This document shows positions 2,521 to 15,960 of a stretch of 15,960 nt of DNA, one piece after another (the first letter of the stretch is position 1; the number at the start of each line of letters is the position of its first letter). The notes under the pieces were generated by a model. The model did no database searches. It had not been told where the DNA came from and saw nothing but the letters and a program-made list of their open reading frames with translations. The stretch lies in the IMG/VR virus record IMGVR_UViG_2802429240_000004, positions 1-15,960 of that record. One strand, 5' to 3'. A program made the position numbers and the translations under genes. The DNA is from a virus (lineage: Duplodnaviria > Heunggongvirae > Uroviricota > Caudoviricetes).

Positions 2521-2792
2521 CTCAACAATGGAAAGATTTTTGTGACGTTCCCGCGTGCGCGTATCACCAGCACGCAGAACAGCAGGTTAAAAAACACTTC
2601 CAGCCAGCCCGTTGCTAACGGGCGACCACACAGATAGCTGAGGGGCGCAAAGGCATACAGCAGCATCAGCAGCCAGGCCAGCCATGACATCAGCGGTTTA
2701 TGTCTGGAATCACGGCGACGATAAAAAAAGAGCGTCAGCACGATAACCGTGCATAACACCACATTCAGCAATCCGGGAAGGTTACTTAACAT
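2517..2792 (-). CDS. Small membrane protein (91 aa, 2-3 predicted TM helices); holin/antiholin-like second lysis membrane protein
   Basis: Internal ATG of track ORF 2517..2846 (MLSNLPGLLNVVLCTVIVLTLFFYRRRDSRHKPLMSWLAWLLMLLYAF...). The start overlaps the upstream gene's stop (AATGTTAAGTAA) and the end overlaps the endolysin start, giving a translationally coupled lysis operon. Confidence 0.55.
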   Translation of the reverse strand: MLSNLPGLLNVVLCTVIVLTLFFYRRRDSRHKPLMSWLAWLLMLLYAFAPLSYLCGRPLATGWLEVFFNLLFCVLVIRARGNVTKIFPLLR

Positions 2793-3174
2793 TGCCGCCT
2801 CCTCCGCCCCGCAGGCGGGAGAACAGACCGGACACCAGTGATGCAATATCCTGCTGGTGGATGAATGACAGAATCTTCACCGACACTACCGCGACAAGCA
2901 CCGCGCACAGCGCATCTGCCGATGTACCGTCATAACCTGTTTTTGCCGCTATCCAGGCTGACAGCACACGCGCTCCCAGCACGCCAACAATGAACGACAC
3001 CAGAAAATGCGCCGCCACACGCCAGGCTGAAAGCTGCTGCGGCATCGTTGCCACAAACAACGCCCCGGCGAACGCACCAAACACAATCCCGAAATCCGTT
3101 CCGGTAAACAGCCCGAATACCGTCGCCCCACCGAGCGCCGCAGCCGTGCCGGAACCGGATAAGGGTTCAGACAT
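2782..3174 (-). CDS. Holin-like membrane protein (130 aa, 3-4 predicted TM helices)
   Basis: First gene after the tandem terminator hairpins, with AGGAG 9 nt upstream of the ATG. Gly/Ala-rich hydrophobic helices (AAALGGATVFGLFTG, FGIVFGAFAGALFVA, FLVSFIVGVLGARVL, LCAVLVAVVSV). Position upstream of the endolysin fits a holin. Confidence 0.6.
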   Translation of the reverse strand: MSEPLSGSGTAAALGGATVFGLFTGTDFGIVFGAFAGALFVATMPQQLSAWRVAAHFLVSFIVGVLGARVLSAWIAAKTGYDGTSADALCAVLVAVVSVKILSFIHQQDIASLVSGLFSRLRGGGGGNVK

Positions 3175-3191
3175 ACTTTTTTCTCCTGTAA

Positions 3192-3215
3192 ATAAAAAAG
3201 GGCCACTAGCGGCCC
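3192..3215 (-). terminator. Intrinsic terminator on the minus strand immediately upstream of the holin gene (tR'-like)
   Basis: GGGCC-actagc-GGCCC hairpin (3200-3215) followed on the minus strand by TTTTTTAT (plus 3192-3199). A second hairpin AAAGGCA-cctgcaga-TGCCTTT lies at 3234-3255. Confidence 0.5.
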
Positions 3216-3438
3216 GTAAAAAAACACCCCATCAAAGGCACCTGCAGATGCCTTTTGTGTGGTGTTATTTGATGTGCGCTGGGCGTGGCGCAGATATGAA
3301 AAAGGCCCGCCGTAGCGAGCCTCAGATTAAAGTGCGTGGGTAATTGCTCTCGTATTCATAGCGCTGTATTCACCACATACCCGGATTTTTGATATTGTTA
3401 AATCGCCAAAAGTAACAATGTCTCAAATGAGGTAAGAA

Positions 3439-3591
3439 ATGGGTCAGAATAACAAACCATTAGATGAAAATGACAAATCCAAGTCAGCTCCAAAGCCCAA
3501 ATCAACAGAGGAACCAAAGAAGGATCCTTTTTCCGTAGAGAGATTGGTCGTTGGTGATTCCTGGGGAGGTATCAGAAGAAAAAGTAAATAA
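3439..3591 (+). CDS. Small hydrophilic hypothetical protein (50 aa), convergent with the membrane-protein moron
   Basis: ORF MGQNNKPLDENDKSKSAPKPKSTEEPKKDPFSVERLVVGDSWGGIRRKSK found by manual translation. GAGGT lies 5 nt upstream of the ATG. AT-rich context; its 3' end overlaps the 3' end of the minus-strand gene by 20 nt. Confidence 0.3.
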   Translation: MGQNNKPLDENDKSKSAPKPKSTEEPKKDPFSVERLVVGDSWGGIRRKSK

Positions 3592-4141
3592 CAACAGAAA
3601 CCATTAATGAATAAACGGGGGCAAGGATAGCTGATATCCTTGCCTTCTCGAGTCCTTCTCTCAGTCTTTTATTTTCCTGCAATAATTCGTTTGCAGTTCT
3701 GCACAAAGCCATCAATCTGTACCTTCTCAATATGGACAAACGGCTGTCTTTCCCCGAAAAACCTCGCTCTTTAAACCTGGCGTAATCCATCGCAGTAATG
3801 CCCTTAATTGCCGGAGTGTACAGAATATCTGGCGACGCATGAATAATGGCACGCTTATGCACTTTCAGCACATTAACAACAAGGTACACAGCACAAATGG
3901 ACCAGTAAAAGACAAAAACAGCCAGTCCAGCGCCCAAAAAATCCAGATGAGTTTTTTGCGTTAATAGTAAAAATGATGAACCGATGCCAACTATCAGAAT
4001 GCTTAATAATTTATAGCCATTTTCCTTGTTGATGCTGTTTGAGCAATGGATTTCCCGAATGCACTCTTCTCCCTGTTTTTCAAGAAAATCAAGAATGTCA
4101 TCATCCGCATCAAGAAAATAGTCGCCGGGTAGATTTTTCAT
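3572..4141 (-). CDS. Membrane protein moron (189 aa; acidic N-terminal domain, two central TM helices, basic cytoplasmic domain, C-terminal TM helix)
   Basis: Track ORF 3572..4156 trimmed to the ATG preceded by GAAGGA (MKNLPGDYFLDADDDILDFLEKQGEEC...). Hydrophobic segments LLSILIVGIGSSFLLL, LGAGLAVFVFYWSICAVYLVVNVL and ISAILAPVYSLMVSVVIYFFF. Visibly AT-rich relative to flanking phage genes. Sits between the Q-like gene and the lysis cassette. Confidence 0.6.
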   Translation of the reverse strand: MKNLPGDYFLDADDDILDFLEKQGEECIREIHCSNSINKENGYKLLSILIVGIGSSFLLLTQKTHLDFLGAGLAVFVFYWSICAVYLVVNVLKVHKRAIIHASPDILYTPAIKGITAMDYARFKERGFSGKDSRLSILRRYRLMALCRTANELLQENKRLREGLEKARISAILAPVYSLMVSVVIYFFF

Positions 4142-4213
4142 TCCTTCACCAACCACGTAATCTGTAATACGCTCAATTTTACCTGAACGCCTGACGATGA
4201 AACACCATGTTCA

Positions 4214-4243
4214 CCAGAAACAACAAAACCCGCTCGATGGCGG
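4214..4243 (-). terminator. Terminator-like hairpin downstream of the Q-like gene (minus strand)
   Basis: CCCGC-tcgatg-GCGGG stem-loop (4228-4243) followed on the minus strand by TTTTGTTGTTT. Lies about 100 nt past the Q-like stop, where lambdoid phages place pR' and tR'. Confidence 0.4.
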
Positions 4244-4343
4244 GTTCTATTAAAGTTCAATTGCGCTTGGTTCGCCTCGCGATACAGCTTTGCGAAGCAT
4301 AGCTGAATTGAAGCAGTTTATTGGCAAAAATGCAATAACTTTT

Positions 4344-4886
4344 TTATTGGCTTTCTCCACATAACGCTAATTTCATTGGTATATACAGAATGTGTTCAGC
4401 AACACCCAACCATGCGTCAATGCGATTTCTGCAAGTTTTCAAGCTCCAGCCAGGGCGATACTTATTTAACTGTTGTGCCATTTTCAGCTTACTCATCCCC
4501 CGCCCTTCATATCTTTGTCGGAGGATAAAAATCAATCCAGGATGCTCTGCCATCACTTCACTAATTACCCGGTCAATACATAACGCCTCGGCATCAGTGC
4601 AATGGGACAGCCAGCTTTTTTGCTTACTGTCGATCATCTCACGCAAAAATGCTTCCAGCTCTGGCTTCTCTATTCCCGCTTTTTTCATTCTGCGCAGAGC
4701 TTCATTGATGGCTGTTTTCGTCAATTTTTTGGATGCCAGCAACTGGTTGAACATATTCCCCGTCTTACCGCCACCAATATACGACCAGCGCCCCCACATG
4801 CGCAGTTTTCCCTGAATCCAGACACTTTCCAGCGTGGTGAGACGAAGGTGTTCCCCGCTTTTGCCTGTATTTGTTGGGTAAATCAT
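4344..4886 (-). CDS. Putative late-gene antiterminator Q-like protein (180 aa)
   Basis: Internal ATG of track ORF 4344..5006, overlapping the upstream gene's stop (TTATGA). Positioned as the last gene before the late-promoter/lysis region. Contains an MWGRWS motif resembling the RWGxW motif I recall in Q82/QuuD-type antiterminators. Assignment is by position plus a weak motif only. Confidence 0.5.
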   Translation of the reverse strand: MIYPTNTGKSGEHLRLTTLESVWIQGKLRMWGRWSYIGGGKTGNMFNQLLASKKLTKTAINEALRRMKKAGIEKPELEAFLREMIDSKQKSWLSHCTDAEALCIDRVISEVMAEHPGLIFILRQRYEGRGMSKLKMAQQLNKYRPGWSLKTCRNRIDAWLGVAEHILYIPMKLALCGESQ

Positions 4887-5173
4887 AAATAACCTTCCTT
4901 TCTCCAGATTTCTTGTGTGCGAAAAACACCTTCTGCATGCATCAGGCGTAATTCTTCTTTGGTGTAATCGCTGGTTTTTACCCGCCCGTCGATTAAATCG
5001 TGGCACGAGCTACAGGCAATCGCTGCCTGCATATCGTGTGGCTTTATCGCTGTTCCGCACGTTCCCGCCAGTCGGTAATGCGCCAGCACAGACGTTTCCG
5101 GATCGTGATTGCAGTAGCCAGGAATTCTGACGGTGCACATCTGGCCTTTAGCCGCTTTACGTAAATCCACCAT
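4883..5173 (-). CDS. nin-region Cys-rich protein (DUF1364 / YbcO-like)
   Basis: 96-aa ORF MVDLRKAAKGQMCTVRIPGYCNHDPETSVLAHYRLAGTCGT...ACSSCHDLID, with the conserved Cys/His pattern I recall for DLP12 YbcO-family proteins. Start overlaps the upstream stop (TAATG). Confidence 0.7.
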   Translation of the reverse strand: MVDLRKAAKGQMCTVRIPGYCNHDPETSVLAHYRLAGTCGTAIKPHDMQAAIACSSCHDLIDGRVKTSDYTKEELRLMHAEGVFRTQEIWRKEGYL

Positions 5174-5772
5174 TACGCAAACTCCAGTAGTTGTGCAGCC
5201 ACATTTTCGACTTCCTCCGGAGAGGAGAATTTACGGAACAGAATCCAGTTCCACAGTACGTTGAGTACTGCTTTATAAACCTGCTGAAACTCGGTTTCGT
5301 CCATATTCGCAAAAGCGATGGATTTCGCCCTGCGCCCACGGCTACCATCCGGATAAAAATGCTCGGTGTAAAATCCGGCCTGAATGGTTACCCACTCGCG
5401 GAAAGCCTCAAACGACTTTAGCAATGCCGTATCCTGGGTTCTGCGTGTCGCAACTGTATTCAGATATTGCTCTGCGGCTTCGCTCAGAGCTGGCGTATGT
5501 TCCCGGCCTACTGATTCACACAGGTAATCAACGAATCCTGAAACCAGTTTTCGTTCGCGAGGAGTGATCGCCCCACCGACCGGAGTCCAGTAATCGAATC
5601 CGAGTTGCAGAAGTTTGAAAAAACGCTTATGGAATGCGTAGTTACGTACACGCTTAAAGTCTGCGTGTACCCACTCACCTATTTTGATTTGATGCAAAAA
5701 ATCGCAACTCTCCGGCGTCGCCGGGAGAAGTAATCCGGAAGAGGTTTGTTTGACCAGTTGTATATGTGCCAT
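5173..5772 (-). CDS. nin-region protein (DUF1367-like)
   Basis: 199-aa ORF with GGAGAAA about 5 nt upstream of the ATG. Family assignment is from memory of lambdoid nin-region proteins and is not verified. Confidence 0.6.
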   Translation of the reverse strand: MAHIQLVKQTSSGLLLPATPESCDFLHQIKIGEWVHADFKRVRNYAFHKRFFKLLQLGFDYWTPVGGAITPRERKLVSGFVDYLCESVGREHTPALSEAAEQYLNTVATRRTQDTALLKSFEAFREWVTIQAGFYTEHFYPDGSRGRRAKSIAFANMDETEFQQVYKAVLNVLWNWILFRKFSSPEEVENVAAQLLEFA

Positions 5773-5838
5773 CGGCTTTCTCCGGTGGCACGGTGTTACT
5801 CAGCAGGAGTTCAATCCTGCTCAAGATTGTAGATGAGT

Positions 5839-6099
5839 TTATTCTTCAGCAAAAGCAGAAAAACCAGCCTTAAAACCAATCTCTTTCAAAACCCCTAATG
5901 ATGTGACAAATTCGTCCTCACGCAAAATAAAACCGTCCGTCAGAAGTCCATTACAAAAATAAAATAACGCAGCTCCACTCTTCCTTTGTTGAGACTGTAA
6001 ACATTTAATACGGCAGTGACTGACAATAGCGCCATTCTCAACGCGCACAGTATAGAGGCCATTTTCACTAAAAATTTCACGCAATTCTTCGATTTTCAT
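5839..6099 (-). CDS. Hypothetical protein (86 aa) between the hok locus and the nin genes
   Basis: ORF MKIEELREIFSENGLYTVRVENGAIVSHCRIKCLQ... with GGAAGGA 9 nt upstream of the ATG (the track starts 3 nt earlier at a TTG). Occupies the position of rem next to hokD in the E. coli Qin prophage; no sequence-level claim is made. Confidence 0.5.
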   Translation of the reverse strand: MKIEELREIFSENGLYTVRVENGAIVSHCRIKCLQSQQRKSGAALFYFCNGLLTDGFILREDEFVTSLGVLKEIGFKAGFSAFAEE

Positions 6100-6220
6100 C
6101 AACAGAATCCTTCCAGATAAATAGCACTCCCCTGTTCGGGGTCCATCCCTCTTCTCCCTGCGCGCTACTTAAGTATTTTTGATTCTATTCCGGCACTATC
6201 CAAAACTTCAAACGCGTTGA

Positions 6221-6250
6221 AAATAAAAACAAAAACCCGCCGAAGCGGGT
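6221..6250 (-). terminator. Intrinsic terminator of the hok mRNA (minus strand)
   Basis: ACCCGC-cgaa-GCGGGT hairpin (6235-6250) followed on the minus strand by TTTTGTTTTTATTT. Preceded by the imperfect palindrome GGCGGGAGATTTCTCCCCCGCC (6291-6312), typical of folded hok mRNA 3' ends. Confidence 0.5.
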
Positions 6251-6319
6251 TAAGTGTGGGTGCATTGAGGATGCCTGACACATCAGAGGTGGCGGGAGAT
6301 TTCTCCCCCGCCAGGTCTC

Positions 6320-6472
6320 TTACTCCTCAGGTTCGTAAGCTGTGAAGACAGCGACCTCCGTCTGGCCGGTTCGGATTCGTACCTCGCAGAGGTCTTTCCT
6401 CGTTACCAGTGCCGTCACTATGACGGTTAAACAGATGACGCTCAGGGCGATTAACATCGTCTTTTGCTGCAT
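6320..6472 (-). CDS. hok: Hok/Gef-family type I toxin (small membrane peptide)
   Basis: Manual translation gives MQQKTMLIALSVICLTVIVTALVTRKDLCEVRIRTGQTEVAVFTAYEPEE (below the ORF-track size cut-off). Single TM helix and conserved Cys; nearly identical to my recollection of E. coli HokD/RelF. An in-frame GTG lies one codon upstream. Followed by a strong terminator. Confidence 0.8.
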   Translation of the reverse strand: MQQKTMLIALSVICLTVIVTALVTRKDLCEVRIRTGQTEVAVFTAYEPEE

Positions 6473-6620
6473 CACAGCCTACTTACCCTTACCTTTCGTT
6501 CAAGCGGTAAGGTCACTTTTTCTGTTGTGTGCTAACCAATAAACCTCTTTTATCTGCATTAAAATTCGCTATCATGTCATCCTCAACCTGTTAATAGCCT
6601 ATTATGGACTTTAGTAAACA

Positions 6621-8450
6621 ATGAGCACTTCCGCATACAAGAGCAAAATTCGAACACTCCAGTGCGCGTTAAAAAACGGTGAATTTGAACCATTCATACA
6701 ACATATCCGTTTTCCATACTTTAAAAATATAGAGCAGAATGCAAGGATCGATTTTCAGTTCCCTATAACGGCTTTAGTAGGAAAAAATGGAACTAATAAA
6801 AGTTCTGTTATCAAAGCGCTATTTGGTTGCCCACATGGTAAAAATATAACTCGTTATTGGTTCACAACTGAAACAGATGAGTTTCCTGACCTAAAACTTG
6901 CTGATGGCAGTTCTCTTAAGCCTAGATATATATATGGATATAAAAATGCTGATGGCCGTTTAGTTGAAATACTCCAAGCGCGTATCAATGCTACCAAGAA
7001 AACAATCGATTATTGGGAAACAAGTCGACCATCTGTTGGTGATAACATGGAGAGCATTTCGGATGATCTGGGTGCTAATAGTAATGCAACCAGATGGAAA
7101 AAAATCAAGAAGGGATTGGTTTTCCTAGATTTCAGATCGGAAATAAGTGCATTTGATAGATGTATGTATCACTCTGATCCTAAATTAAGAAAGAAGAAGA
7201 GTGGTGTATTAATTACAAAGCAAGACTATATCAGAAGCAAATCTAAATATATAAAAAAAGCTTTTGATGAAAAGCTAAGTAATTTAAGACTTTGGGGGAC
7301 GGAAACCATTGTTAAAAATATAACCTTGGCGCCAGAACTAGTTGAGCACGTCTCATTTATATTAGGGAAAAAATATAAAGTCATTAAATTTCTTGAGCAT
7401 CGGTTATTTGGAACCAAAGGAGGAACCGTTTTACTTTCAACTGATAAGTTGAACTATACAGAAGCTTTTGCTGGAAGTGGTGAATTTGCAATAGTTTCAC
7501 TAATACTCAATATTTATTCGGCCAAACCTAATTCATTAATTCTTCTTGACGAACCAGAAGTTTCACTTCACCCTGGTGCACAGAAAAGGATGATGGATGT
7601 TCTGTACTCTATTGTTGAGCAGAAAAAACATCAAGTGGTAATATCAACCCATTCTCCTGTTATTGTGAACACTCTTCCCAAAGATGCCATTAAATTATTT
7701 GTTTTTGATGAAGAAAGTGAAACAGCTAAAATAGTTCAAAATATAGCACCGGATGAAGCTTTTATAGAGCTAGGGCATGATATTAACAAGAAAACAATAA
7801 TTGTAGAAGATAAATTAGCTAAAGCAATTATAGATAAAGCGATTAAAAATGATGAAAGATTAAGCTTATCATTTAGTGTAAGTTATATACCAGGTGGTTC
7901 GGAGACCATTTTAAGCAAGCATCTTCCCAGTTACGCTGTGGTAGAACGCAATGATATTTTGTTTTTACTTGATGGTGATAAGAACAAAAAAATAAAACCA
8001 GTAAGAATTAGTGAAATTGCTGATGCTGATTTAGTTAATACAATGTGCAAATATTATGGTTGCGAGTTAATTATCAATGCCAGTGGTAGTAATGGCAAAA
8101 AAAATGAACAAGAATCTAATAGACTCAAAAGGCAAGTGCTTGAGTATGCATTCAATAAAGTGCAGTATTTACCATTTGATACTCCCGAACAATTACTCAT
8201 TGAAAAGGCAATTACGCCAAGTGAAAAAGAAATAATTGATTCACAGACCTGGAGTTCTGATGATCCAGAACTGTATAAGAATCAAATAAGATTATTAGCG
8301 CAACACCTGTATGATAAAGAAGAAGTAAATGCAGAGGAAATTTTTTGCCTCCAACAAATAATGACCGCAAGACTTAAAAATGAATTGCCTGAATTTATAA
8401 AAATAAGAAAAATAATTACTCAGGCTCTTGACCGTGGTATCATTAGGTAG
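6621..8450 (+). CDS. OLD-family ABC-type ATPase with C-terminal TOPRIM-like nuclease domain (609 aa)
   Basis: Walker A GKNGTNKSS, signature-like AGSGEF, Walker B SLILLDEPEVSLHP, H-loop VISTHSP. The C-terminal region has a TOPRIM-like glutamate (TIIVEDKLAKAII) and DxD (LFLLDGDKN). Strongly AT-rich; opposite strand to the surrounding phage genes. Confidence 0.75.
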   Translation: MSTSAYKSKIRTLQCALKNGEFEPFIQHIRFPYFKNIEQNARIDFQFPITALVGKNGTNKSSVIKALFGCPHGKNITRYWFTTETDEFPDLKLADGSSLKPRYIYGYKNADGRLVEILQARINATKKTIDYWETSRPSVGDNMESISDDLGANSNATRWKKIKKGLVFLDFRSEISAFDRCMYHSDPKLRKKKSGVLITKQDYIRSKSKYIKKAFDEKLSNLRLWGTETIVKNITLAPELVEHVSFILGKKYKVIKFLEHRLFGTKGGTVLLSTDKLNYTEAFAGSGEFAIVSLILNIYSAKPNSLILLDEPEVSLHPGAQKRMMDVLYSIVEQKKHQVVISTHSPVIVNTLPKDAIKLFVFDEESETAKIVQNIAPDEAFIELGHDINKKTIIVEDKLAKAIIDKAIKNDERLSLSFSVSYIPGGSETILSKHLPSYAVVERNDILFLLDGDKNKKIKPVRISEIADADLVNTMCKYYGCELIINASGSNGKKNEQESNRLKRQVLEYAFNKVQYLPFDTPEQLLIEKAITPSEKEIIDSQTWSSDDPELYKNQIRLLAQHLYDKEEVNAEEIFCLQQIMTARLKNELPEFIKIRKIITQALDRGIIR

Positions 8451-8473
8451 TGATTCTGGATGCAGAGGGAAAA

Positions 8474-9514
8474 ATGAAAAAAATCAAAGTGTTTGACTTC
8501 TTTTCCGGTTGTGGTGGAACCAGCCAAGGTTTCCATCAAGCTGGAATGGATATTGTTTTTGGCCTCGATTTCGACGTTGATGCAGCCAGTTCATTTCGTG
8601 CAAATTTCCCGCAGGCTGCTTTTATTAACTCGGACATTAGGTTAATCGACAACAATGCCATAAACAAGTTAGTAAAAAAACATCGTAATGATTACATTCT
8701 TTTTTCAGGATGTGCGCCTTGTCAACCGTACTCTAAGCAAAACTCAAATAAAAAAAATGATGATCCACGATTAGATCTATTAAAGGAATTCAGTCGTTTT
8801 GTAGAGCATTATATGCCTGATTTTATTTTTGTTGAAAACGTGCCTGGAATGCAAAAGTTTAACAAAAATGAAGGAACATTCATGATGTTTTTAGAAATGC
8901 TTTCATCAAAGGGATATAGTGTAGATTATAAAGTAATGCCAGCTGCGTGGTACGGTGTACCACAGACGCGAGAAAGATTAGTGCTCATTGCATCCAAGGA
9001 TTTTTATGTCGCATTGCCTTCTCCTACACATGGGGTTGGAAATACTCCCTATTCAACAGTAAAGGACTGGATCGCTAATTTACCGAAGATAGAGGCAGGA
9101 GAAAAGCATAATAGTATTCCTGATCATGAAGCTGCACGCTTATCAGAGCTTAATTTACGTAGAATAAAATGCACTCCTGAAGGTGGAAGTCGAGAATTTT
9201 GGCCAGATGAATTGATTTTAGAATGCCATCGTAACCATAAAGGGCATACAGACGTATATGGACGTTTGAGTTGGGACAAACCAGCCAGCGGACTAACAAC
9301 TCGTTGTATTAGCTATTCAAATGGACGTTTTGGACATCCAACACAAAATCGAGCAATATCGGTTCGTGAAGCAGCGTGTCTACAAACATTTCCTTTGGAT
9401 TATAAATTTATTGGTTCTTTGCAATCTCGGGCTCGTCAAATAGGAAATGCGGTCCCTCCGAAGATGTCTGAAACGATTGGAAAACATTTGCTTAATATAA
9501 TCAAAGCCTCCTAG
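8474..9514 (+). CDS. DNA (cytosine-5)-methyltransferase
   Basis: Motif I FDFFSGCGG, motif IV catalytic GCAPCQPYS, motif VI ENV, motif VIII QTRERLVLIA, motif X IGNAVPP; variable region between VIII and IX. GAGGGA precedes the ATG at 8474; alternatively starts at the GTG at 8450 overlapping the upstream TAG. Operon with the ATPase gene. Confidence 0.85.
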   Translation: MKKIKVFDFFSGCGGTSQGFHQAGMDIVFGLDFDVDAASSFRANFPQAAFINSDIRLIDNNAINKLVKKHRNDYILFSGCAPCQPYSKQNSNKKNDDPRLDLLKEFSRFVEHYMPDFIFVENVPGMQKFNKNEGTFMMFLEMLSSKGYSVDYKVMPAAWYGVPQTRERLVLIASKDFYVALPSPTHGVGNTPYSTVKDWIANLPKIEAGEKHNSIPDHEAARLSELNLRRIKCTPEGGSREFWPDELILECHRNHKGHTDVYGRLSWDKPASGLTTRCISYSNGRFGHPTQNRAISVREAACLQTFPLDYKFIGSLQSRARQIGNAVPPKMSETIGKHLLNIIKAS

Positions 9515-9530
9515 GAGGCTTTATTTTATT
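9501..9530 (+). terminator. Perfect 20-bp palindrome plus T-tract terminating the ATPase-methyltransferase operon (probably bidirectional)
   Basis: AAAGCCTCCTAGGAGGCTTT is identical to its reverse complement and contains the methyltransferase TAG stop; it is followed by TTATTTTATT. Confidence 0.55.
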
Positions 9531-9545
9531 GTTATCCCCTAGTAT

Positions 9546-9977
9546 TTAATCGTGCTCACCAGACAACCTCCTGAAATTACTCTGGTAAAATGCCAGTACA
9601 CGCTGCATAACTTCGCTTTTCCGGCACTCGCGACAGATTATGTTCTGACGCCTGTCGTGGCGGCGTATTTCTCCGTCTGGTAATGACCAGATAAGGTCAG
9701 GATCAACCACAACCGGTTTCTTCGTCTTTGCCCTTGATAGTTTTTTGCGGGCGTTTTGCCAGTCTTTACGCGCCTGCTCAGACGGGAATAATCCGTAGCC
9801 AGAATTGTAAACATCACCACTGGCGACCAGTTCTCTGGCGAGAGTGCTTATGTAATACCTTGATGCACCGGTTTTAGCCTCCAGAGCCCGTAACGTCTCG
9901 CGACCGCTCAGACGTACAAGTTCAACAACCTGCCCTTTAATTTTTTCCCGCTCTTCTGGTGTAAATACTTTTGCCAT
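9546..9977 (-). CDS. Hypothetical phage protein (143 aa)
   Basis: ATG with GGAGG 5 nt upstream (the track ORF starts 15 nt earlier at a TTG). Contains ICRECRK near the C-terminus. No family assigned. Confidence 0.55.
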   Translation of the reverse strand: MAKVFTPEEREKIKGQVVELVRLSGRETLRALEAKTGASRYYISTLARELVASGDVYNSGYGLFPSEQARKDWQNARKKLSRAKTKKPVVVDPDLIWSLPDGEIRRHDRRQNIICRECRKSEVMQRVLAFYQSNFRRLSGEHD

Positions 9978-9992
9978 AGGTGCCTCCGGCAA

Positions 9993-10754
9993 TCACTTTT
10001 CCGATGCAACATGGCGGGAAGAATCAGTAATCTGTCGTACAATATCCCTGTGCTTGTTCAGCTCCCGCAGCGCGGAGCAGACACGCTCCCACTTCTGGAC
10101 ATGATTTTTCGCCCGACGCAGTTCGCGGTTTGCCAGATGCAGCGATGGTAAAATCAGGTCATCGGCTCGCGTTGCAGTAAACGATGGCAACGACTGCACA
10201 ATGTCCGCCACAGTTTCTGTTTTAATTTCTTCCTGTATTGCAGCTTCCGGCGCTGGTAACGCAACATCTGCTGGCTGAGGAAAGGCTTTACCATCATTTC
10301 CCGTTACCGATGCGGCTTTCGGCTCTGCTGGTAAATTATCGTCCGGCATGCAGTAACGAAATTTACCGTTCTGATTTACACGAATCAGACGCCCTTTGCT
10401 GATTGCCATTGCCAGCGTTGAAGCTACTTTGCGTGATGTGGTACCGAACAATGTAGCCAACTCATCAGCCGTTTGTGGTCCGCGTTGTTCAATCGTCGCG
10501 GTTAAATCGCTCTCTGAGATTTTCGCTACTGTCGCCGTGGTGGTTTCTTCCGGCTGTTCTTCTGGCGCTGGCTGTTCCTGCTGAACGTTGTTATCAGCCA
10601 CACGCCAGGTGTATACGCTTTTATCAACGAAGCCAGCCTTTTTCAGTTCCCACAGCTCGTTCAGAACTTCTTCACGACTGATATCAAGTCGCGCAGCCAG
10701 TTCTACCGACGTGGCTTTTCCCATTGCTTTCAGTGCATCAAAAACGGTTTCCAT
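9993..10754 (-). CDS. Hypothetical phage protein (253 aa) with N-terminal winged-helix-like segment and acidic Pro/Glu-rich linker
   Basis: Internal ATG of track ORF 9993..10820 with GGGAGGA 8 nt upstream. [43 protein letters not shown] resembles a wHTH; followed by low-complexity [16 protein letters not shown]. Confidence 0.55.
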
Positions 10755-10788
10755 TAAAATTTCCTCCCGGTAAAAATTACTTCTCAAC

Positions 10789-11454
10789 TCAAACAAACCC
10801 AGCCGCTTTCCGGCGTTCATATTCCTGTTTCAGCAACTCAATTGGAGTTGGCCCCGACGGGCGTTTTGGTGCTACCAGTTGCCGCCGGACGGGCGGAACG
10901 CTGAAGCCGTCACCAACATGCTTTGCCCATTTCGCTAGTTGCCGTTCTGCAAGTCGTTTTAACTCCCCTTCGGTCATCTGACGCTCAATCCCTTTTGCCC
11001 GCATCTCGAGGCAAATGTGATACAGCACGGGCTGAGACCACGGGTATTTATCGCTCCCGTCGTATCGCCAGGACTCGTTGCGCCAGCGGCGGTACTCCTC
11101 CATCACGGCATCCACAGTCAAACCAAACGGATTTGCCCCACTTTCCGAAATCAACGCCACAAACTCAGCCAGGTCAGGAGGCCATGTTTCACCCGCCCGA
11201 CAACGCTCCATGCACTGGCGGCAGACCTGCCGGATTTGCTGCTCAGTCATCGCGCCAATCTGTGCAATCCAGAGCTTCGAAGGTGCGGCCCCGTTCTTCT
11301 GGGTCCAGCGGTTCGAATAAACCTCCCCCATGAGTTCCCACAGCTTCCACGCCGTTTCCGTCGCTGATAAATCCGTTTTCACGTTCCCACTGCTCACGTG
11401 CTGCCCGAATTTCCTGAACTGCCCGTGATGCGGTGCCACCTGGCGTTGCTGCAT
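10789..11454 (-). CDS. Replication protein P-like (helicase loader)
   Basis: Alignable by eye to lambda P: [40 protein letters not shown] versus lambda YPWKSNAHYWLVTNLYQNMRANALTDAELRRKAADELVHM; also [12 protein letters not shown] versus TTMEQVNAGMRVARRQ. AAGGGGGTGA lies upstream of the ATG at 11454. Confidence 0.7.
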
Positions 11455-12367
11455 GGTTCACCCCCTTGCTGACTGGTTTAACCTGCGCCCTGACGTGATT
11501 TACGTGACGGGCGAATTTCTGCTCCCACTGAACCTGCGTGAACACTTTGCCCTCCGCTGCCCAGTAGTCCCGGAAGGCGGCAAGTTCAGCTGGTGTAAAT
11601 TCCGGCTCAGGAAGAGCCACGCCCCACAGCGCAGCCCGTCGTCGAAAATCCGGCGACGGATGCCAGCCATCGGTCATCGGAAATTTCCCGATGGGTTCGC
11701 TCAGGCCTTCCAGGTAATCAGGTTCCGCTGTCTGCAACGGCACGCCATTTGCCTCACTGGCCGGAGCACTCTCGCGCACGCGCGCGTTATGTGTGGGGTT
11801 TATATATCTGTTATCTGTTATCTGGATACCGCATGACAAAGCGTTAGCCTTATCCTTAGGCTTATCCTCAGGCAAAGGGATTGCCTTATCGAATGCCATC
11901 CCCAAAGCCTCAGAAACCCCGTAGGACGCGGCTCTCAGCGATTCCCTGGCCTCCCATTTGAGAGGGCAATCAGGAATTAAAGCGAATGCCTTTGCCCAGG
12001 ATTTAATGACATTTATCGAGTTTGGCGGATTGTGTTTCGCAGCATTCGGGAGCCAAAAAACTCTGGCTTTGATATCTGCTTTCACCATGCCAAGATTCAT
12101 GGCTTCGCCTAAGGCTAAGTCAAAGGCTTCGATATCCCACCCCAACTCTTCAGCCATTGCTGCCCGCCCGGCTTTAAACAACCCAGGAATAATCCCGGTA
12201 AATGGACTGGTCAGCAGATAAATAAACAAACTCTGTCCACTTGGAGGCAGAGGAGATAACGCCCTAAATTTGGGATCATCCCATATCGTTATTTTTACCT
12301 TGCGATAAGGCTCATTGTTTGCCTTAGTTTTTGGCATGGGATTTGGCATGTTTTTAGCCTTAACCAT
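11243..12367 (-). CDS. Replication initiator O-like protein with DnaT-like C-terminal domain
   Basis: Internal ATG (GAGG 6 nt upstream) of track ORF 11243..12421. The C-terminal segment [61 protein letters not shown] matches E. coli DnaT ([29 protein letters not shown]...[20 protein letters not shown]). Its last ~70 codons overlap the P-like gene in another frame. Confidence 0.7.
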   Translation of the reverse strand: [374 protein letters not shown]

Positions 12368-12446
12368 AATTGCCTCATCTGGTGTCGAACCTTCCTCCGG
12401 ATATAATCTGTGATTCCCCAATCAACAGAACCAAAGGAGGTTCGAC

Positions 12447-12902
12447 ATGTCTTTAATGGCTGTTTGCCAAAAAATTAAAAATCACATGCGCACTGTGTAC
12501 AAAATTAACCAGCACGACCACGACATGGTTAACCTGGTAACATGCAGGGCTATAGTTCTCACCCGCTTCCATCTACTTCTTACAAATCACTCACGAGATT
12601 CTCTCCTGAGTCCCAGTAACTATGATTCGCTGGCGAGATTGCTATACCAGGCAAGTGAAAAACGTATTACTGATCCCTTATCTGTTTCTCCTGTCCTTGC
12701 TCTTCACATTCTGGAAGACGCTCTCTATGACCCCCATCAGGAATGCGACTATCAATTTCTTGAAGCTGAGAAATCAATGAGAGAATGGTTCGTTGAATAT
12801 CACGAACGGCAGCAAAAGTTATCCTCAAAGTATTCAGAACTTCCGCAACTTCGCTGGAGTGACCTTCCGAACGAATTATTTGCTCTGACCCCAGAAAATT
12901 AA
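12447..12902 (+). CDS. Hypothetical protein (151 aa), AT-rich, antisense to the early-right operon; conflicts with 12667..13080
   Basis: Strong RBS AAAGGAGG 6 nt before the ATG and a perfect TATAAT hexamer about 40 nt upstream (12402-12407). Globular-looking sequence. Overlaps the minus-strand ORF by 236 nt, so at most one of the two is likely real over that stretch. Confidence 0.4.
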   Translation: MSLMAVCQKIKNHMRTVYKINQHDHDMVNLVTCRAIVLTRFHLLLTNHSRDSLLSPSNYDSLARLLYQASEKRITDPLSVSPVLALHILEDALYDPHQECDYQFLEAEKSMREWFVEYHERQQKLSSKYSELPQLRWSDLPNELFALTPEN

Positions 12903-13080
12903 TTCTTGGGGATAAATCGTCCATAACTGAGCGCAGGCTAAGTTCTGCGCTCTGAAGCTTCCGAACCGAAGTTTCTGTACCCCAACCCGCAATTTCTGCA
13001 TTTTTTGCAAGTTTCAGGATCCAGTCTCGTAGTTCGCCGGGAGTAAGATTTCCAGCATTGATAAACGGTTTGATTTTCAT
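12667..13080 (-). CDS. Hypothetical protein (137 aa) following the YdaT-like gene; conflicts with 12447..12902
   Basis: ATG 20 nt after the YdaT-like stop with a weak RBS. The N-terminal 59 codons lie in unique sequence; the remainder overlaps the plus-strand ORF. Confidence 0.3.
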   Translation of the reverse strand: MKIKPFINAGNLTPGELRDWILKLAKNAEIAGWGTETSVRKLQSAELSLRSVMDDLSPRINFLGSEQIIRSEGHSSEVAEVLNTLRITFAAVRDIQRTILSLISQLQEIDSRIPDGGHRERLPECEEQGQEKQIRDQ

Positions 13081-13099
13081 TGTTAGTTACCCTATTCAC

Positions 13100-13522
13100 T
13101 TAATGAACAACAGCAGAATCGTCGGACGACCCACCACCGCTGAAATGCGCTTTCCGGTAAACGGCTTGGACTGCATCATCATGCGCATCAATTGCCGTAC
13201 TCAACGCTTCCTGCGCCGCCAGTAATGCACGGCGTTCCAGGGTATCGAAGATGCTGAATCGGTGGCGCAGCTCGCGCGGAAGGATTGCCAGAATTGCAGG
13301 GATCAGTTTCTGAATTTTTTCCCTTTGCGCTTCCGTTTCACCTTTCAACCAGCGGTGATAGATATTCTGCTGATTGTTCCAGTCCTTGCCTGGTACCAGG
13401 GGTAATTCGCCGCCCCCCTGGCGCAGATATTCTTCAGTAATTGCGTTAGCGACCCACGCCTGCCCTTTTTCGGCTGCCAGGGCTAACAGCACTGATTCGA
13501 TGTGCTCATGCCTGATTTTCAT
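13100..13522 (-). CDS. YdaT-like protein (CII-like regulator family of Rac-type prophages)
   Basis: 140-aa ORF directly after the Cro-like gene (17-nt overlap), AAGGTGA upstream. Begins MKIRHEHI and ends AVVH, matching my recollection of E. coli YdaT; family call by memory and position. Confidence 0.6.
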   Translation of the reverse strand: MKIRHEHIESVLLALAAEKGQAWVANAITEEYLRQGGGELPLVPGKDWNNQQNIYHRWLKGETEAQREKIQKLIPAILAILPRELRHRFSIFDTLERRALLAAQEALSTAIDAHDDAVQAVYRKAHFSGGGSSDDSAVVH

Positions 13523-13733
13523 GAATCACCTTCCCTGCTCGCTTTGCCTTACGATATTCGTCATAAACGTTGGGGTCGTACTGAAGCTCCCCGCCGGATG
13601 CCTCCTGCAGGCGCATCGCGCGGCCTTCAGGAACCAGTTCCCCCCATGCAGCAATGCTTGCCAGCCTCACCCCTGCAGCATTCGCGAGCTTCGTTTTGCT
13701 GCCAAAAAAAGCTATAGCATCGGTTTTCAACAT
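13506..13733 (-). CDS. Cro-like HTH regulator
   Basis: 75-aa ORF divergent from the repressor, AAGGAG 6 nt upstream. DAIAFFGSKTKLANAAGVRLASIAAWGELVPEGRAMRLQEASGGELQYDPNVY parallels lambda Cro ([26 protein letters not shown]...INADGSVYAEEVKPF). Confidence 0.7.
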   Translation of the reverse strand: MLKTDAIAFFGSKTKLANAAGVRLASIAAWGELVPEGRAMRLQEASGGELQYDPNVYDEYRKAKRAGKVIHENQA

Positions 13734-13809
13734 ATCGAACTCCTTAGATTTTCCTAAGTAAACTAGATTGTAGAGAAACCTAAGTCAAGAAAAATTAGAA
13801 TTACCTAAT
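13734..13809. promoter_or_regulatory. OR-like divergent promoter/operator region between the Cro-like and repressor genes
   Basis: Contains CTTAG-attttc-CTAAG (13744-13759) and further CCTAAG/CCTAAT copies (13779-13784, 13804-13809). The repressor ATG has no Shine-Dalgarno and a TAGAAT hexamer sits about 9 nt upstream, suggesting a leaderless transcript as for lambda cI from pRM. Confidence 0.55.
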
Positions 13810-14217
13810 ATGAAAAACGAAACCTTCGGTGCCCGCCTCTTACACAGGCGTAAAAAATTAAAACTGTCCCAGGCCGCATTAGGTAAGCTGGTCAAAGTGG
13901 CTCACGTAACAATTTCTCAGTGGGAAAGGGATGAAACACAGCCTGCGGGGAAGAGATTATTCGCGCTGAGTCAGGCACTTCAGTGCTCACCGACCTGGCT
14001 TCTTTTTGGGGATGAAGATAAGCAACCAGGCGAACCGATCCCGGCGAACCAACCAACCAATCTGACAGAAGAGCAAAAAGAGTTACTTCAACTGTTCGAC
14101 GCACTGCCTGAATCAGAGCAAAAAGCTCAATTGTCAGAGATGCGTGCCAGAGTTGAGAATTTCAACAAACTTTTTGAAGAACTACTCAAAGCTCGCAAAA
14201 GAAGCACAAATAAATAA
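13810..14217 (+). CDS. Prophage repressor, HTH_XRE family without peptidase domain (DicA/RacR-like)
   Basis: 135-aa ORF; N-terminal LSQAALGKLVKVAHVTISQWERDETQPAGKRLFALSQALQCSPTWLLFG is a canonical XRE/cI-type HTH. Flanked on both sides by CTTAG-type operator repeats. Confidence 0.8.
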   Translation: MKNETFGARLLHRRKKLKLSQAALGKLVKVAHVTISQWERDETQPAGKRLFALSQALQCSPTWLLFGDEDKQPGEPIPANQPTNLTEEQKELLQLFDALPESEQKAQLSEMRARVENFNKLFEELLKARKRSTNK

Positions 14218-14244
14218 CCCCCCTCTTTACCCCCTCTCTGTAAT

Positions 14245-14280
14245 AAAAAACACAAATTTTCAAACAGTTGTGTTTTTTTG
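14245..14280 (+). terminator. Weak AU-rich stem-loop plus U-tract after the repressor gene
   Basis: AACACAA-attttcaaacag-TTGTGTT followed by TTTTTT. The stem is AT-rich, so terminator strength is uncertain. Confidence 0.4.
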
Positions 14281-14290
14281 CATCAAAAAA

Positions 14291-14345
14291 CTTAGGTTTT
14301 TCTACACAAAACACTTGACCATCATTCTTAGGTTATTCTAAATTT
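14291..14345 (+). promoter_or_regulatory. OL/pL-like promoter-operator for the early-left operon
   Basis: Operator-like repeats CTTAG-gttttt-CTACA (14291-14306) and CTTAG-gttatt-CTAAA (14327-14342) flank a TTGACC -35 hexamer (14315-14320), with TAAATT about 18 nt downstream. Confidence 0.4.
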
Positions 14346-14417
14346 TAGCCATCAAAACACCGCACGGTGTTCTCAGCAAACAGTTCCGCCACCCGGCGTT
14401 AAGGGGAGAGGAAAACA

Positions 14418-14717
14418 ATGTTCACACACGATATATATCCATCAAAAACGGGAAGAAGCGTACTCACTCTTGCATCCGAGCTTTCTGAGCTGGCAGCAGA
14501 GATGGCAAAAGATAAAGGCATTACACCAAAAGATGCACGTCTTGCACTGGAGCTGGCCAGCAGGGTGTCTGCTAACCCGAAAGAGACTCCAAATGATCTG
14601 ATTAAAAGAATGGCTGATGCCATGAAAAAAGTCAGTGAGATCGCAAAAGATCCAAAAGTTGAAAGTGCACTGGAAGATCTGCGGGCCGTAGCAAATGCGA
14701 TGATCGAGGAGATGTAA
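14418..14717 (+). CDS. Hypothetical helical protein (99 aa), first gene of the early-left operon
   Basis: Strong RBS AAGGGGAGAGG before the ATG. Lys/Glu/Ala-rich; not arginine-rich, so not an obvious lambda N homologue. Confidence 0.55.
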   Translation: MFTHDIYPSKTGRSVLTLASELSELAAEMAKDKGITPKDARLALELASRVSANPKETPNDLIKRMADAMKKVSEIAKDPKVESALEDLRAVANAMIEEM

Positions 14718-14747
14718 CCGGCACCACAGGGTGCCAGTCGGGGAAAA

Positions 14748-15026
14748 CTAGACAGAGCGGAATACTGGAATTTTCGACTGAGGACCATCTACTGGGCGTA
14801 TGCTTTCACGTAAGCGTGCATCGAGCCTGATAGCCTCTTCCGAATGCTCAATCTTATAACCCGACGAACACCTCATTGCTTGCAATTTCACGTCCAGATC
14901 AGGAAGAACGGCAAAACTACCATGATTTGGACAATGATAAATTTTCAAAAATTCGCGCTGTCCTTCAACTAAAGTCTGCACAGAAGATGTAGCCAAACAA
15001 ACAGGGCAGAGTGAAGTAATTACCAT
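14748..15026 (-). CDS. Small Cys-rich (zinc-ribbon-like) protein (92 aa)
   Basis: Internal ATG of track ORF 14748..15215 with AAGGA 8 nt upstream. Contains CPVC...HCPNHG. Convergent with the 99-aa gene; a GGCACC-acag-GGTGCC hairpin lies between them. Confidence 0.5.
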   Translation of the reverse strand: MVITSLCPVCLATSSVQTLVEGQREFLKIYHCPNHGSFAVLPDLDVKLQAMRCSSGYKIEHSEEAIRLDARLRESIRPVDGPQSKIPVFRSV

Positions 15027-15422
15027 ACTAAATTCCTTACTGGTTGTGTGAGAACTCCAGTATACCACCGAGCCTGAAGTGGTAAAAAGACAGGCGCACA
15101 ACACGAAAGCGCACGGAGGAGGTGTTTTTCCCTTAGAAGGCTTGTCGTTAAATTTCTTCGACCGTGCGCTTCCGGTTGTGAATAACAACATTGCTGTGTG
15201 TAGTCCTGGCGGCATCAGTTTTTTCTTGAAGTTCGGCTGATGTCCGCCCTCTTTTTAAAGTGAATTTTGTGATGCGGTGAATGCGGCTAAGCGCACGCGG
15301 AACAGTTAAAAGCGTAAGAGTTATGGGTGAAATACTCCGGCGTTAATTGTTAACTGGTTAACGTCACCTGGAGGCACCAGGCACCGCATCGACAAAATTC
15401 ATTTGTAAAAATGGAGATAATT

Positions 15423-15644
15423 ATGATTGCTCATCACTTCGGAACTGATGAAATACCACGTCAGTGTGTGACCCCTGGCGATTATGTTCTTCATGAAGGT
15501 CGGACATATATCGCCTCGGCAAACAATATCAAAAAGCGAAAACTTTATATTCGTAACCTGACCACAAAAACATGCATTACTGACTGCATGATTAAAGTCT
15601 TCCTCGGTCGTGATGGTTTACCTGTAAAGGCGGAGTCATGGTGA
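15423..15644 (+). CDS. Small hypothetical protein (73 aa; alternative start at 15411)
   Basis: GGAG 6 nt upstream of the ATG at 15423. AT-rich. Its stop overlaps the start of the next small ORF (TGATG). Confidence 0.45.
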
Positions 15645-15814
15645 TGACTAAGAAAATAAAATGTGCTTACCACCTTTGCAATAAAGGAATTGAAGAAAGC
15701 AAAAGCATTAAAAGACCACTTCATTTCATGCGTGGAGTTATACCAACGACGGAAATGAAAAAATATTGTAGTGAAAGTTGTGCCGAAAAAGACCAGATGG
15801 CACACGAACTTTAA
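15644..15814 (+). CDS. Small Cys/His-rich hypothetical protein (56 aa)
   Basis: Manual translation [56 protein letters not shown]. Translationally coupled to the preceding ORF. C-x4-C...C-x3-C spacing suggests a zinc ribbon. Confidence 0.4.
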   Translation: MTKKIKCAYHLCNKGIEESKSIKRPLHFMRGVIPTTEMKKYCSESCAEKDQMAHEL

Positions 15815-15887
15815 TTAACTGACTATTCGAAAGTGAATTTATGCCAGCAATGGCAGGGATTCGCTCAACCTTAATTAAGGAGAAAAA

Positions 15888-15960
15888 ATGATTACCAATT
15901 ATGAAGTCACTGTTGTAACTACCGATGACATTGTTCACGAGGTTAATCTGGAAGGAAAGC
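15888..15960 (+). CDS. Hypothetical protein, 5' fragment continuing past the window end
   Basis: AAGGAGA 7 nt upstream of the ATG at 15888; open frame MITNYEVTVVTTDDIVHEVNLEGK... with no stop before the window end. Confidence 0.35.
   Translation, partial: MITNYEVTVVTTDDIVHEVNLEGK

Follow-up and report, generated by a model that had tools for sequence, protein, structure and literature searches.

A probable Qin-like immunity region with variant operators and a conserved early-left leader RNA in a mosaic lambdoid prophage

The closest described counterpart of the locus treated here is the dicC-dicA-dicBp immunity region of the Qin prophage in Escherichia coli K-12, which was reportedly characterized by Bejar and Bouche in 1986-88. 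Our locus occupies positions 13506-14417 of the window, by which we mean the whole analysed stretch of 15,960 nucleotides (positions 1 to 15,960 of IMG/VR virus record IMGVR_UViG_2802429240_000004, Caudoviricetes). We consider it highly probable that this segment is a Qin-like lambdoid prophage immunity region, in which a DicA/DicC switch is combined with a conserved leader RNA. The switch belongs to an already well-studied kind of prophage on/off switch, and the copy in the window is an operator-specificity variant of it (CTTAG/CTAAG instead of GTTAG/CTAAC). The hairpin that a first-pass annotation had noted before the early-left gene opens, as its first helix, a conserved and apparently undescribed leader RNA about 57 nucleotides (nt) long.

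The Qin region of K-12 has been the subject of several studies (Yun 2012; Ragunathan 2023). Its operators between the divergent genes dicC and dicA are named Oc, Om and Oa, of which Oc (TTGTTAGTCATAACTAACAA) binds DicA in vivo; single-base changes in Oc abolish this binding. When bound there, DicA is a repressor of dicC and an activator of dicA (PMC3441716). A DicA site at dicC was also recovered by Reg-Seq. On the other side of dicA, the promoter dicBp is repressed 22-fold by DicA, a deletion of dicC being without effect, the operon behind it is induced by the antirepressor Rem, and dicBp itself fires spontaneously in a subpopulation (PMC10448788).

The locus in the window shares with Qin the divergent layout, three operators at the same positions in the spacer, a further pair at the early-left promoter, where they surround a TTGACC hexamer, the operator core TTAG-N6-CTAA, the distance between -10 hexamer and ATG known from the leaderless K-12 dicA mRNA, and a nearly identical early-left leader. 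It differs in the outer operator bases, in the 5' region of its DicF-like small RNA (sRNA), which is unlike K-12 DicF, and in the first genes of the operon, which are a gene for a 99-aa protein, kilR and ydaE in the window, compared to ydfABC, dicB and ydfD in K-12. Because the outer operator bases are different (CTTAG/CTAAG in the window, GTTAG/CTAAC in K-12), the repressor probably has another immunity specificity than that of K-12 Qin.

To judge by their sequences, the repressor and the Cro-like gene are homologues of dicA and dicC, and phage records label the same two genes in this way. The 135-aa repressor matches the NCBIfam model DicA NF007257 over its full length 1-135 (238.9 bits, cut-off 101) and is 62% identical to K-12 DicA, while its N-terminal 69 residues match the DNA-binding domain of P22 C2 (1adr/2r1j, E = 1e-21). 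Pfam assigns residues 6-72 of it to HTH_3 and other helix-turn-helix (HTH) families only, and finds no LexA/S24 cleavage domain in the repressor. The earlier description as a short HTH-only repressor needs correction: the protein carries a conserved C-terminal half of about 65 aa, even though the cleavage domain is missing, and is not strictly HTH-only. The 75-aa protein encoded divergently matches NCBIfam DicC NF007282 (157.1 bits, cut-off 130), Pfam P22_Cro and the structure of P22 Cro (1rzs, E = 2e-8), and is 77% identical to K-12 DicC. In E. coli, the DNA closest to that of the immunity region reaches no more than 92% identity, and this match ends just before the 99-aa gene.

Around these genes the first-pass annotation had seen the inverted repeat CTTAG-N6-CTAAG, once perfect and twice as near-copies. 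The perfect repeat (O1) is real, and both direct sequence reading and a pattern search give it as CTTAG-ATTTTC-CTAAG at 13743-13758, one base before the position 13744-13759 originally noted. It lies just downstream of the dicC -10 hexamer, and its left arm indeed overlaps the Shine-Dalgarno sequence AAGGAG of this Cro-like gene (CTCCTT at 13740-13745 on the plus strand; the dicC ATG is at 13733 on the minus strand). The two near-copies, CTTAG-GTTTTT-CTAcA at 14291-14306 and CTTAG-GTTATT-CTAAa at 14327-14342, stand where they had been placed, on either side of the -35 hexamer TTGACC (14315-14320). Two extra sites that were absent from the earlier account (O2 at 13769-13784 and O3 at 13794-13809) are present in the 76-bp spacer between dicC and dicA, which gives a centre-to-centre spacing of 26 and 25 bp along O1-O2-O3, with O3 abutting the repressor ATG at 13810. 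O2 is kept as CGTAG-AGAAAC-CTAAG in the relatives L001, L123 and L125. No third early-left operator was found by a pattern search with up to 3 mismatches.

In alignments of both intergenic regions the sites of the window fall exactly on the K-12 sites. The latter comprise Oc (GTTAG-TCATAA-CTAAC), a degenerate middle site and TTTAG-CATTAG-CTAAC, which abuts the dicA ATG, as well as GTTAG-CTATAG-CAtAC and GTTAG-TCATGG-CTAAt around the same TTGACC of the dicB promoter. Because their positions are those of Oc, Om, Oa and the dicBp operators of Qin, the repeats can be read as predicted operators that flank the repressor gene in an immunity switch, which supports the interpretation that the first-pass annotation had offered.

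The number of such sites is not the argument. Operator matches with up to two mismatches amount to 9 in the whole window compared to 4.9 expected, which is unremarkable by itself, and the significance of the operators rests on their clustering. All three exact TTAG-N6-CTAA cores of the window, and five of its seven cores with one mismatch, are located inside the 276 nt of the two intergenic regions, for which about 0.008 exact cores are expected from local composition; three or more were found there in none of 20000 shuffles. The best evidence here that the repressor reads these sites, indirect as it is, comes from homologues, among which the operator half-site changes along with the HTH region of the repressor. 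Repressors with the recognition helix VAHVTISQWE pair with (C/G)TTAG-N6-CTAA(G/C) operators, where the outer base C or G tracks differences in the helix preceding the recognition helix, and repressors with VSGSSISLWE (phage mEp460, Buttiauxella) pair with ATTGAG-N4-CTCAAT. The CTTAG and GTTAG operators, which go with the same recognition helix and a different preceding helix, offer a natural comparison for outer-base reading by P22 C2-like repressors. In other respects the switch, as a heteroimmune variant of DicA/DicC, adds little that is new.

An alternative, which we regard as unlikely but worth weighing, is that O1 is the only true repressor operator, and that O2, O3 and one or both of the early-left sites are mainly bound by DicC, are occupied through cooperativity only, or are not bound. 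Several observations weigh for it and against the assignment of all sites to the repressor: K-12 Om and Oa, when cloned alone, do not bind DicA in vivo (PMC3441716), and the DicA site at dicBp is a low-evidence entry of unknown location in curated data. The roles given here to the degenerate sites are accordingly putative, and operator binding and start sites of the CTTAG variant are predicted. On the other hand, relatives with the same recognition helix (L001, L123-L125) conserve both the location and the sequence of the degenerate sites, a different repressor type is accompanied by different sites, and K-12 dicBp is clearly repressed by DicA irrespective of dicC.

In alignment, the predicted dicC promoter has the same arrangement as that of K-12 (TTGACT-17-TATCTT), and since it precedes O1, O1 would cover the dicC start and ribosome-binding site, and O2 the promoter spacer and -35 hexamer. 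The dicA gene has a -10 hexamer TAGAAT 8 nt before its ATG, with no credible -35, and lacks a Shine-Dalgarno sequence as the first-pass annotation had stated, because none of GGAG, GAGG and AGGA occurs in the 20 nt before the ATG. A TA(G/A)NAT hexamer precedes the ATG by 8-9 nt in all homologues compared. For K-12, the start of dicA has been mapped to 3 nt upstream of its ATG, and the list of leaderless E. coli mRNAs by Romero et al., only five in all, contains dicA, racR and ymfK (PMC4681348). Given this mapped start and the conserved TA(G/A)NAT geometry, we predict that the dicA mRNA of the window starts at A13808 with a leader of 2 nt. The repressor mRNA is thus very probably (near-)leaderless, as had been suggested; this property is already known for the DicA family and hence not new.

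On the right-hand side of dicA, a promoter scan pairs TTGACC (14315-14320), which aligns with the -35 hexamer of K-12 dicBp, with TAAATT (14339-14344). As expected of a DicA/DicC-type region, this predicted operator-controlled promoter after dicA would drive a dicBF-type operon of division inhibitors, and the DicF-like sRNA and KilR found downstream fit such an operon. Between dicA and this promoter, an AT-rich hairpin with flanking A and T runs (14246-14280) is kept in the closest E. coli relative (L001). The hairpin is not called by a terminator scan, for which it is too GC-poor; it looks like a weak, possibly bidirectional terminator, which would insulate the early-left promoter from dicA transcription.

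Taken together, the switch would most probably work as follows. The repressor, with its P22 C2-like HTH and a C-terminal half without autocleavage domain, would be transcribed rightward from a weak promoter whose -10 hexamer lies inside O3, and its mRNA would start about 2 nt before the ATG and be translated without a Shine-Dalgarno sequence. The divergent gene for the Cro-like DicC would be driven by a strong promoter (TTGACT/TAGTTT). By analogy with K-12, a repressor dimer on O1, at the +1 and ribosome-binding site of dicC, would turn dicC off and favour dicA, while the weaker O2 and O3 would probably be filled cooperatively or by DicC, occupancy of O3 lowering dicA expression. The two early-left sites, which bracket the -35 and cover the -10 hexamer, would keep silent a toxic operon made up of the 99-aa gene, the DicF-like sRNA, kilR and ydaE. 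Since the repressor has no LexA/S24 autocleavage domain, induction should need an antirepressor and not RecA-mediated cleavage.

Other described switches resemble the locus to a lesser degree. The immC region of P22 has in common with it the N-terminal domain of the repressor (C2), a Cro protein similar to DicC and a tripartite operator between divergent genes, and P22 operators likewise possess 14-bp cores with TTAAG/CTTAA-type arms. In contrast to DicA-type repressors, which in K-12 are induced by an antirepressor, P22 C2 has a C-terminal, RecA-sensitive cleavage domain. The lambda cI/cro region shares the logic of a bistable switch, with the repressor gene between operator sets and a weak, activator-dependent maintenance promoter, to which the spontaneous switching-on of K-12 dicBp may be added, and its leaderless repressor mRNA (cI from PRM) has a counterpart in the one predicted for the window; however, the repressors are homologous only at the level of the HTH class, the repressor of the window has no S24 domain and the window contains no N/nut system. 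The first-pass annotation had proposed the Rac prophage (racR/ydaS) for comparison. Rac indeed shares the organisation of its racR/ydaS/ydaT region, a repressor mRNA that is leaderless in Rac and predicted to be so in the window, a CII-like gene of the YdaT type together with a YdaT box or a similar repeat, kilR and ydaE downstream, and a ydaG leader with the same pseudoknot module as the leader of the window. Nevertheless, RacR and its ATTAGG-type operator repeats are unrelated to the CTTAG-N6-CTAAG sites, and in place of the first leader hairpin Rac has another stem or a long C-rich leader. Among the described systems, Qin DicA/DicC, itself P22 C2/Cro-like, comes closest, and not RacR/YdaS of Rac.

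The leader is the more useful result and the sole part of the locus that deserves follow-up. The inverted repeat AACACCG-ca-CGGTGTT, which the first-pass annotation had described at 14356-14371, is present there with its 7-bp arms, but as RNA it forms a stem of only 6 bp with a GCAC tetraloop. This hairpin, H1, folds with -6.8 kcal/mol (z = -3.6), and an equally stable fold was obtained in 1 of 200 shuffles. It is part of a cassette in which a CATCAA start region, H1, a CUCAG motif, an A-rich linker, a GUUC motif and a pseudoknot follow each other. CATCAA is located 6-7 nt after the early-left -10 hexamer, i.e. at the predicted start, and the RNase III cut of K-12, published as +813/814, puts the K-12 start within a few nt of CATCAA as well. 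The pseudoknot ends 11 nt before the first start codon in the window. In alignment the cassette is about 93% identical to the ydfA leader of K-12, while the neighbouring operators differ.

An exact 24-mer of the leader is found in at least 120 IMG/VR contigs, and the 62-nt leader in 2943 of 5426 complete E. coli genomes, where it reaches up to 5 copies per genome and bears no annotation. It is present in the viable phage mEp460, and diverged forms of it are located behind the dicA homologues of Pantoea, Erwinia, Enterobacter, Citrobacter and Buttiauxella; altogether, 61 distinct variants were collected. What lies upstream of CATCAA differs between immunity types, and on the other side more than 30 unrelated first genes follow the cassette, with their start codons 7-25 nt behind it. 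The 3' half of the cassette by itself (GTTCCGCCACCCGGCGTTAAGGGG) also forms the end of otherwise unrelated leaders, namely those of Rac-SA53, K-12 Rac and E. coli TUM1881. The pseudoknot module is present twice in K-12, ahead of ydfA (Qin) and of ydaG (Rac). Early-left leaders of the Rac type measure about 150 nt, start with a very C-rich tract (ACCACCCACCCCGCCCCACAG) and close with the pseudoknot module, right in front of ydaG or of the 99-aa gene (L253, which is K-12 Rac, about 2150-1955 on the minus strand; L252, 2300-2520). Rfam has no match to the leader with E up to 1 over 13000-15960, and none at gathering level at the leaders of seven relatives. A description of it was likewise absent from the literature on the sequence and on ydfA/dicB leader or termination, a search which did not extend to most subscription journals, including the dic papers of 1986-1990.

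We regard it as probable that the cassette combines a 5' hairpin with an H-type pseudoknot, in which compensatory changes occur. Behind the GUUC motif, CGCY and RGCG form helix S1, and helix S2 pairs the last 3-4 bases of the S1 loop with GGGN 3-5 nt further on, which results in dimensions of 4 bp for S1, 1 nt for L1, 3-4 bp for S2 and 3-5 nt for L3, the four strands having no nucleotides in common. Among the variants, the stem of H1 appears as AACACC/GGTGTT, AATCAC/GTGATT, AATCACT/AGTGATT and ACAGC/GCTGT, and the partners in S2 are CCCC/GGGG, CUCC/GGGG, GCCU/GGGC, GCCU/AGGC, GCCC/GGGC, GCCG/CGGC, CCG/CGG, ACCC/GGGU and GCC/GGC. Both helices were assessed with alignment-free permutation tests: the best H1 stem reached 4.67 compared to 3.93 +/- 0.20 when its halves were exchanged among variants (none of 1000 permutations as high), and the S2 helix 3.80 with its own partner compared to 3.34 +/- 0.07 with permuted partners (none of 2000). 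In a pseudoknot alignment of 38 distinct sequences, 96% of the cells pair, and in three of the eight pairs both partners have changed; the covariation score of 0.279, compared to 0.143 in shuffles, was attained in none of 500, and sliding the partners reduced the pairing to 35-45%. S1 was in addition predicted independently by RNAalifold on an unfitted MAFFT alignment.

These figures have to be read with some caution, and the following points count against the proposed structure. The pseudoknot alignment was built by hand and padded with N, its linker length being chosen for maximal pairing, and the kinship of the sequences makes the shuffle statistics overstate the support for the pseudoknot. 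From the unfitted alignment RNAalifold recovered S1 alone, because insertions and deletions misalign H1 and S2, and H1 has a C-A mismatch in the Pantoea and Citrobacter types. The single-sequence fold of the 3' half of the leader is no better than that of shuffles (z = -0.6), with a program that cannot model pseudoknots. The terminator stem GGCGG of DicF is complementary to CCGCC of S1, which we judge to be a coincidence.

The conservation of the cassette could also be explained without any function as RNA, if it were a recombination joint between lambdoid immunity and early-left modules with an incidental structure. The edges of the cassette are breakpoints of the mosaic, as operators and first genes vary around a cassette that is nearly invariant within E. 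coli, and the pseudoknot module alone is common to Rac-type leaders. We nevertheless think that this explanation is rather improbable: across genera, the diverged sequence retains its pairing through double changes in S2 (CCCC/GGGG, GCCU/AGGC, GCCG/CGGC, CCG/CGG, ACCC/GGGU) and through CG/UG/UA changes in S1, and H1 persists with different stems (AACACC/GGTGTT, AATCAC/GTGATT, ACAGC/GCTGT).

If the cassette does act as an RNA, what the structure may do can be approached through known leader elements. The first-pass annotation had suggested a nut-like or processing element, i.e. a site recognised by a phage or host protein. The strongly conserved single-stranded CUCAG and GUUCCG motifs could suggest such a sequence-specific recognition, in some relatives a perfect boxA (CGCTCTTTAACAA) follows the element at a short distance, and K-12 dicBF mRNA is a known substrate of RNase III and RNase E, which process it farther downstream. 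Yet we consider this very improbable. There is no boxA (CGCTCTTA / GCTCTTTAACAA) in 14350-14417, the sole match in the window being at 3765 on the plus strand; H1 carries a GCAC tetraloop on a 6-bp stem and not a boxB pentaloop; the helices are too short for RNase III; and no N-like gene follows, the 99-aa protein having no arginine-rich motif and no family match. A lambda-type nut site, with boxA, a GNRA-like pentaloop and an arginine-rich N-like gene behind it, is accordingly rejected, while a role in processing is still conceivable. In L215 a canonical boxA and hairpin come after the element, which itself is hence not the nut site.

The boxA sequences of the relatives deserve a remark of their own. 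In L215 (10991-11030), boxA CGCTCTTTAACAA is followed by a GCCC-UUAGU-GGGC hairpin downstream of the pseudoknot, and the same boxA occurs about 58 nt after GTTCCG in L128, L178, L185, L224, L229 and L248. Relatives with a boxA seem to carry a canonical nutL besides the leader element.

Another conceivable role is that of a cis-acting processive antiterminator RNA like put of phage HK022, where the nascent RNA would bind RNA polymerase and allow it to read through DicF-type and other terminators to kilR, recET or dicB. The leader, like putL, and like lambda nut in the general sense of a structured RNA at the very start of the early-left transcript, begins at +1 of the early-left promoter, a strong intrinsic terminator (that of the DicF-like sRNA, 15195-15249) lies between it and kilR, and another read-through device would be useful as there is no N-like gene or boxA. 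We think a put-like function improbable all the same. The leader has no sequence similarity to HK022 putL, for which the PL-nun region was compared, and no boxA or boxB, and its short hairpin and 4+4-bp pseudoknot are much smaller than the two long stem-loops of put, which total about 70 nt (PMC9378689). In addition, the pseudoknot module travels alone, by the ribosome-binding site, behind unrelated long leaders (Rac, TUM1881). A second copy comparable to putR is missing in the rightward operon: a covariance model matches the leader with 73.9 bits (14350-14411), the only strong match in the window, and the best others are weak (3207-3274 minus, 13.8 bits, E = 0.055; 10883-10904 minus, 12.2 bits). 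We therefore reject a second leader copy in the rightward or late operons and, on sequence, architecture and single copy, a homologue of HK022 put; Rfam holds no put model.

Of the two weak matches, 10883-10904 (GTTCCGCCCGTCCGGCGGCAACTGG) resembles the pseudoknot module and lies inside a lambda-P-like open reading frame (ORF; 10789-11454). It is a coding look-alike by our impression, as variation among contigs looked like change at third codon positions. The match at 3207-3274 is a segment CATCAAATAACACC...GGTGTTTT in the leader of the late operon.

With some hesitation, we favour a cis role of the leader in mRNA stability and/or translation initiation, in which it would start at the transcription start and act on the early-left mRNA. 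Three features speak for such a role: the ribosome-binding site of the first gene, whichever this is, always has the pseudoknot at its 5' edge; UAAGGGG is Shine-Dalgarno-like and the sole candidate in L052, L117, L018 and Rac; and the 5' hairpin is about 5 nt from the 5' end. Against this it must be said that the evidence presented here fits stability or translation control and antitermination alike. More tentatively still, the cassette may represent a previously undescribed class of cis-regulatory RNA in Qin-, Rac- and mEp460-type lambdoid early-left operons across Enterobacterales. If this were true, factor-independent antitermination or a portable module for translation or mRNA stability would be candidate roles, and such a module would determine how strongly the toxic dicBF/kil operon is expressed after loss of the repressor. 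The module heads operons of the cell-division inhibitors DicF, DicB and KilR, and it is directly testable in K-12 because of the two copies of the pseudoknot module there.

Table 1. Positions in the window of the predicted regulatory elements, genes and RNAs.
Feature	Positions	Strand	Remarks
Q-like antiterminator gene	4344-5006		DUF1133/Phage_antitermQ
609-aa OLD/PtuA/Gabija-like ATPase	6621-8450	+	PADLOC HEC-04, ATPase-Toprim
Dcm-type cytosine methyltransferase	8450-9514	+
YdaT-family (CII-like) gene	13100-13522	-	downstream of dicC; Pfam YdaT_toxin, PHROG 163 CII-like activator
dicC homologue, 75 aa, Cro analogue	13506-13733	-	divergent from dicA
Operator O1	13743-13758		perfect CTTAG-N6-CTAAG; aligns with K-12 Oc
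Predicted dicC promoter	13760-13788	-	-35 TTGACT 13788-13783, 17-nt spacer, -10 TAGTTT 13765-13760
Operator O2	13769-13784		tgTAG-AGAAAC-CTAAG; at K-12 Om position; dicC promoter spacer/-35 region
Operator O3	13794-13809		aTTAG-AATTAC-CTAAt; at K-12 Oa position; holds dicA -10
Predicted dicA promoter	13796-13808	+	-10 TAGAAT 13796-13801 inside O3; predicted start A13808
dicA homologue, 135-aa repressor, CI analogue	13810-14217	+	HTH residues 7-65; without S24 protease domain
AT-rich hairpin with flanking A and T runs	14246-14280		just after dicA; -9.7 kcal/mol, z = -2.6
Early-left operator, distal	14291-14306		CTTAG-N6-CTAcA; upstream of early-left -35
Early-left promoter, dicBp equivalent	14315-14344	+	TTGACC, 18-nt spacer, TAAATT; predicted start A14351
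Early-left operator, proximal	14327-14342		CTTAG-N6-CTAAa; covers early-left promoter spacer and -10
Conserved leader cassette, about 57 nt	14350-14406	+	from CATCAA 14350 to AAGGGGA 14406
Leader hairpin H1	14356-14361 with 14366-14371	+	loop GCAC
Leader helix S1	14387-14390 with 14395-14398	+	CGCC with GGCG; pseudoknot
Leader helix S2	14392-14394 with 14403-14405	+	CCC with GGG; pseudoknot
99-aa hypothetical protein	14418-14717	+	first early-left gene
155-aa ORF	14748-15215	-	between 99-aa gene and DicF-like sRNA; weak zinc-ribbon match
DicF-like sRNA	15195-15249	+	Rfam 37.6 bits, below gathering score 48
STnc100-like match	15239-15430	+	40.4 bits (gathering score 47); overlaps DicF-like sRNA, runs into kilR start
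KilR, FtsZ inhibitor	15411-15644	+	NCBIfam NF008465, PHROG 294
YdaE	15638-15814	+

Taken as a whole (Table 1), the window looks like a mosaic prophage, in which the early-left operon with KilR and YdaE is Rac-like and the immunity genes are Qin-like. The 99-aa protein encoded first in this operon has no match in Pfam, PHROG, NCBIfam or PADLOC and no arginine-rich N-terminus; its gene is annotated as hypothetical in E. coli TUM1881, where the pseudoknot module likewise precedes it. What is conserved in the DicF-like sRNA is its terminator half, with a strong terminator hairpin at the end; its 5' targeting region is different from the one in K-12 DicF. At a place comparable to that of the DicF-like and STnc100-like matches, an sRNA named KilS is annotated in K-12 Rac. 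A shorter hypothetical gene is annotated in E. coli TUM1881 at the place of the 155-aa ORF, which, if real, would be antisense to the early-left transcript.

On the other side of dicC, the inverted repeat CTGATT-TTCATG-AATCAC (13512-13529) extends across the start codon of the YdaT-family gene and is similar to TTGATT-N6-AATCAA, the YdaT box as published; in Rac that box activates a reverse promoter which points to the repressor gene (PMC11879457). The genes of the OLD/PtuA/Gabija-like ATPase and the Dcm-type methyltransferase are on the opposite strand, embedded in the replication/early-right region, and look like a defence or moron insert. In the late-operon leader (3180-3340, minus strand), upstream of the holin gene (2782-3174), three terminator-like hairpins stand in a row.

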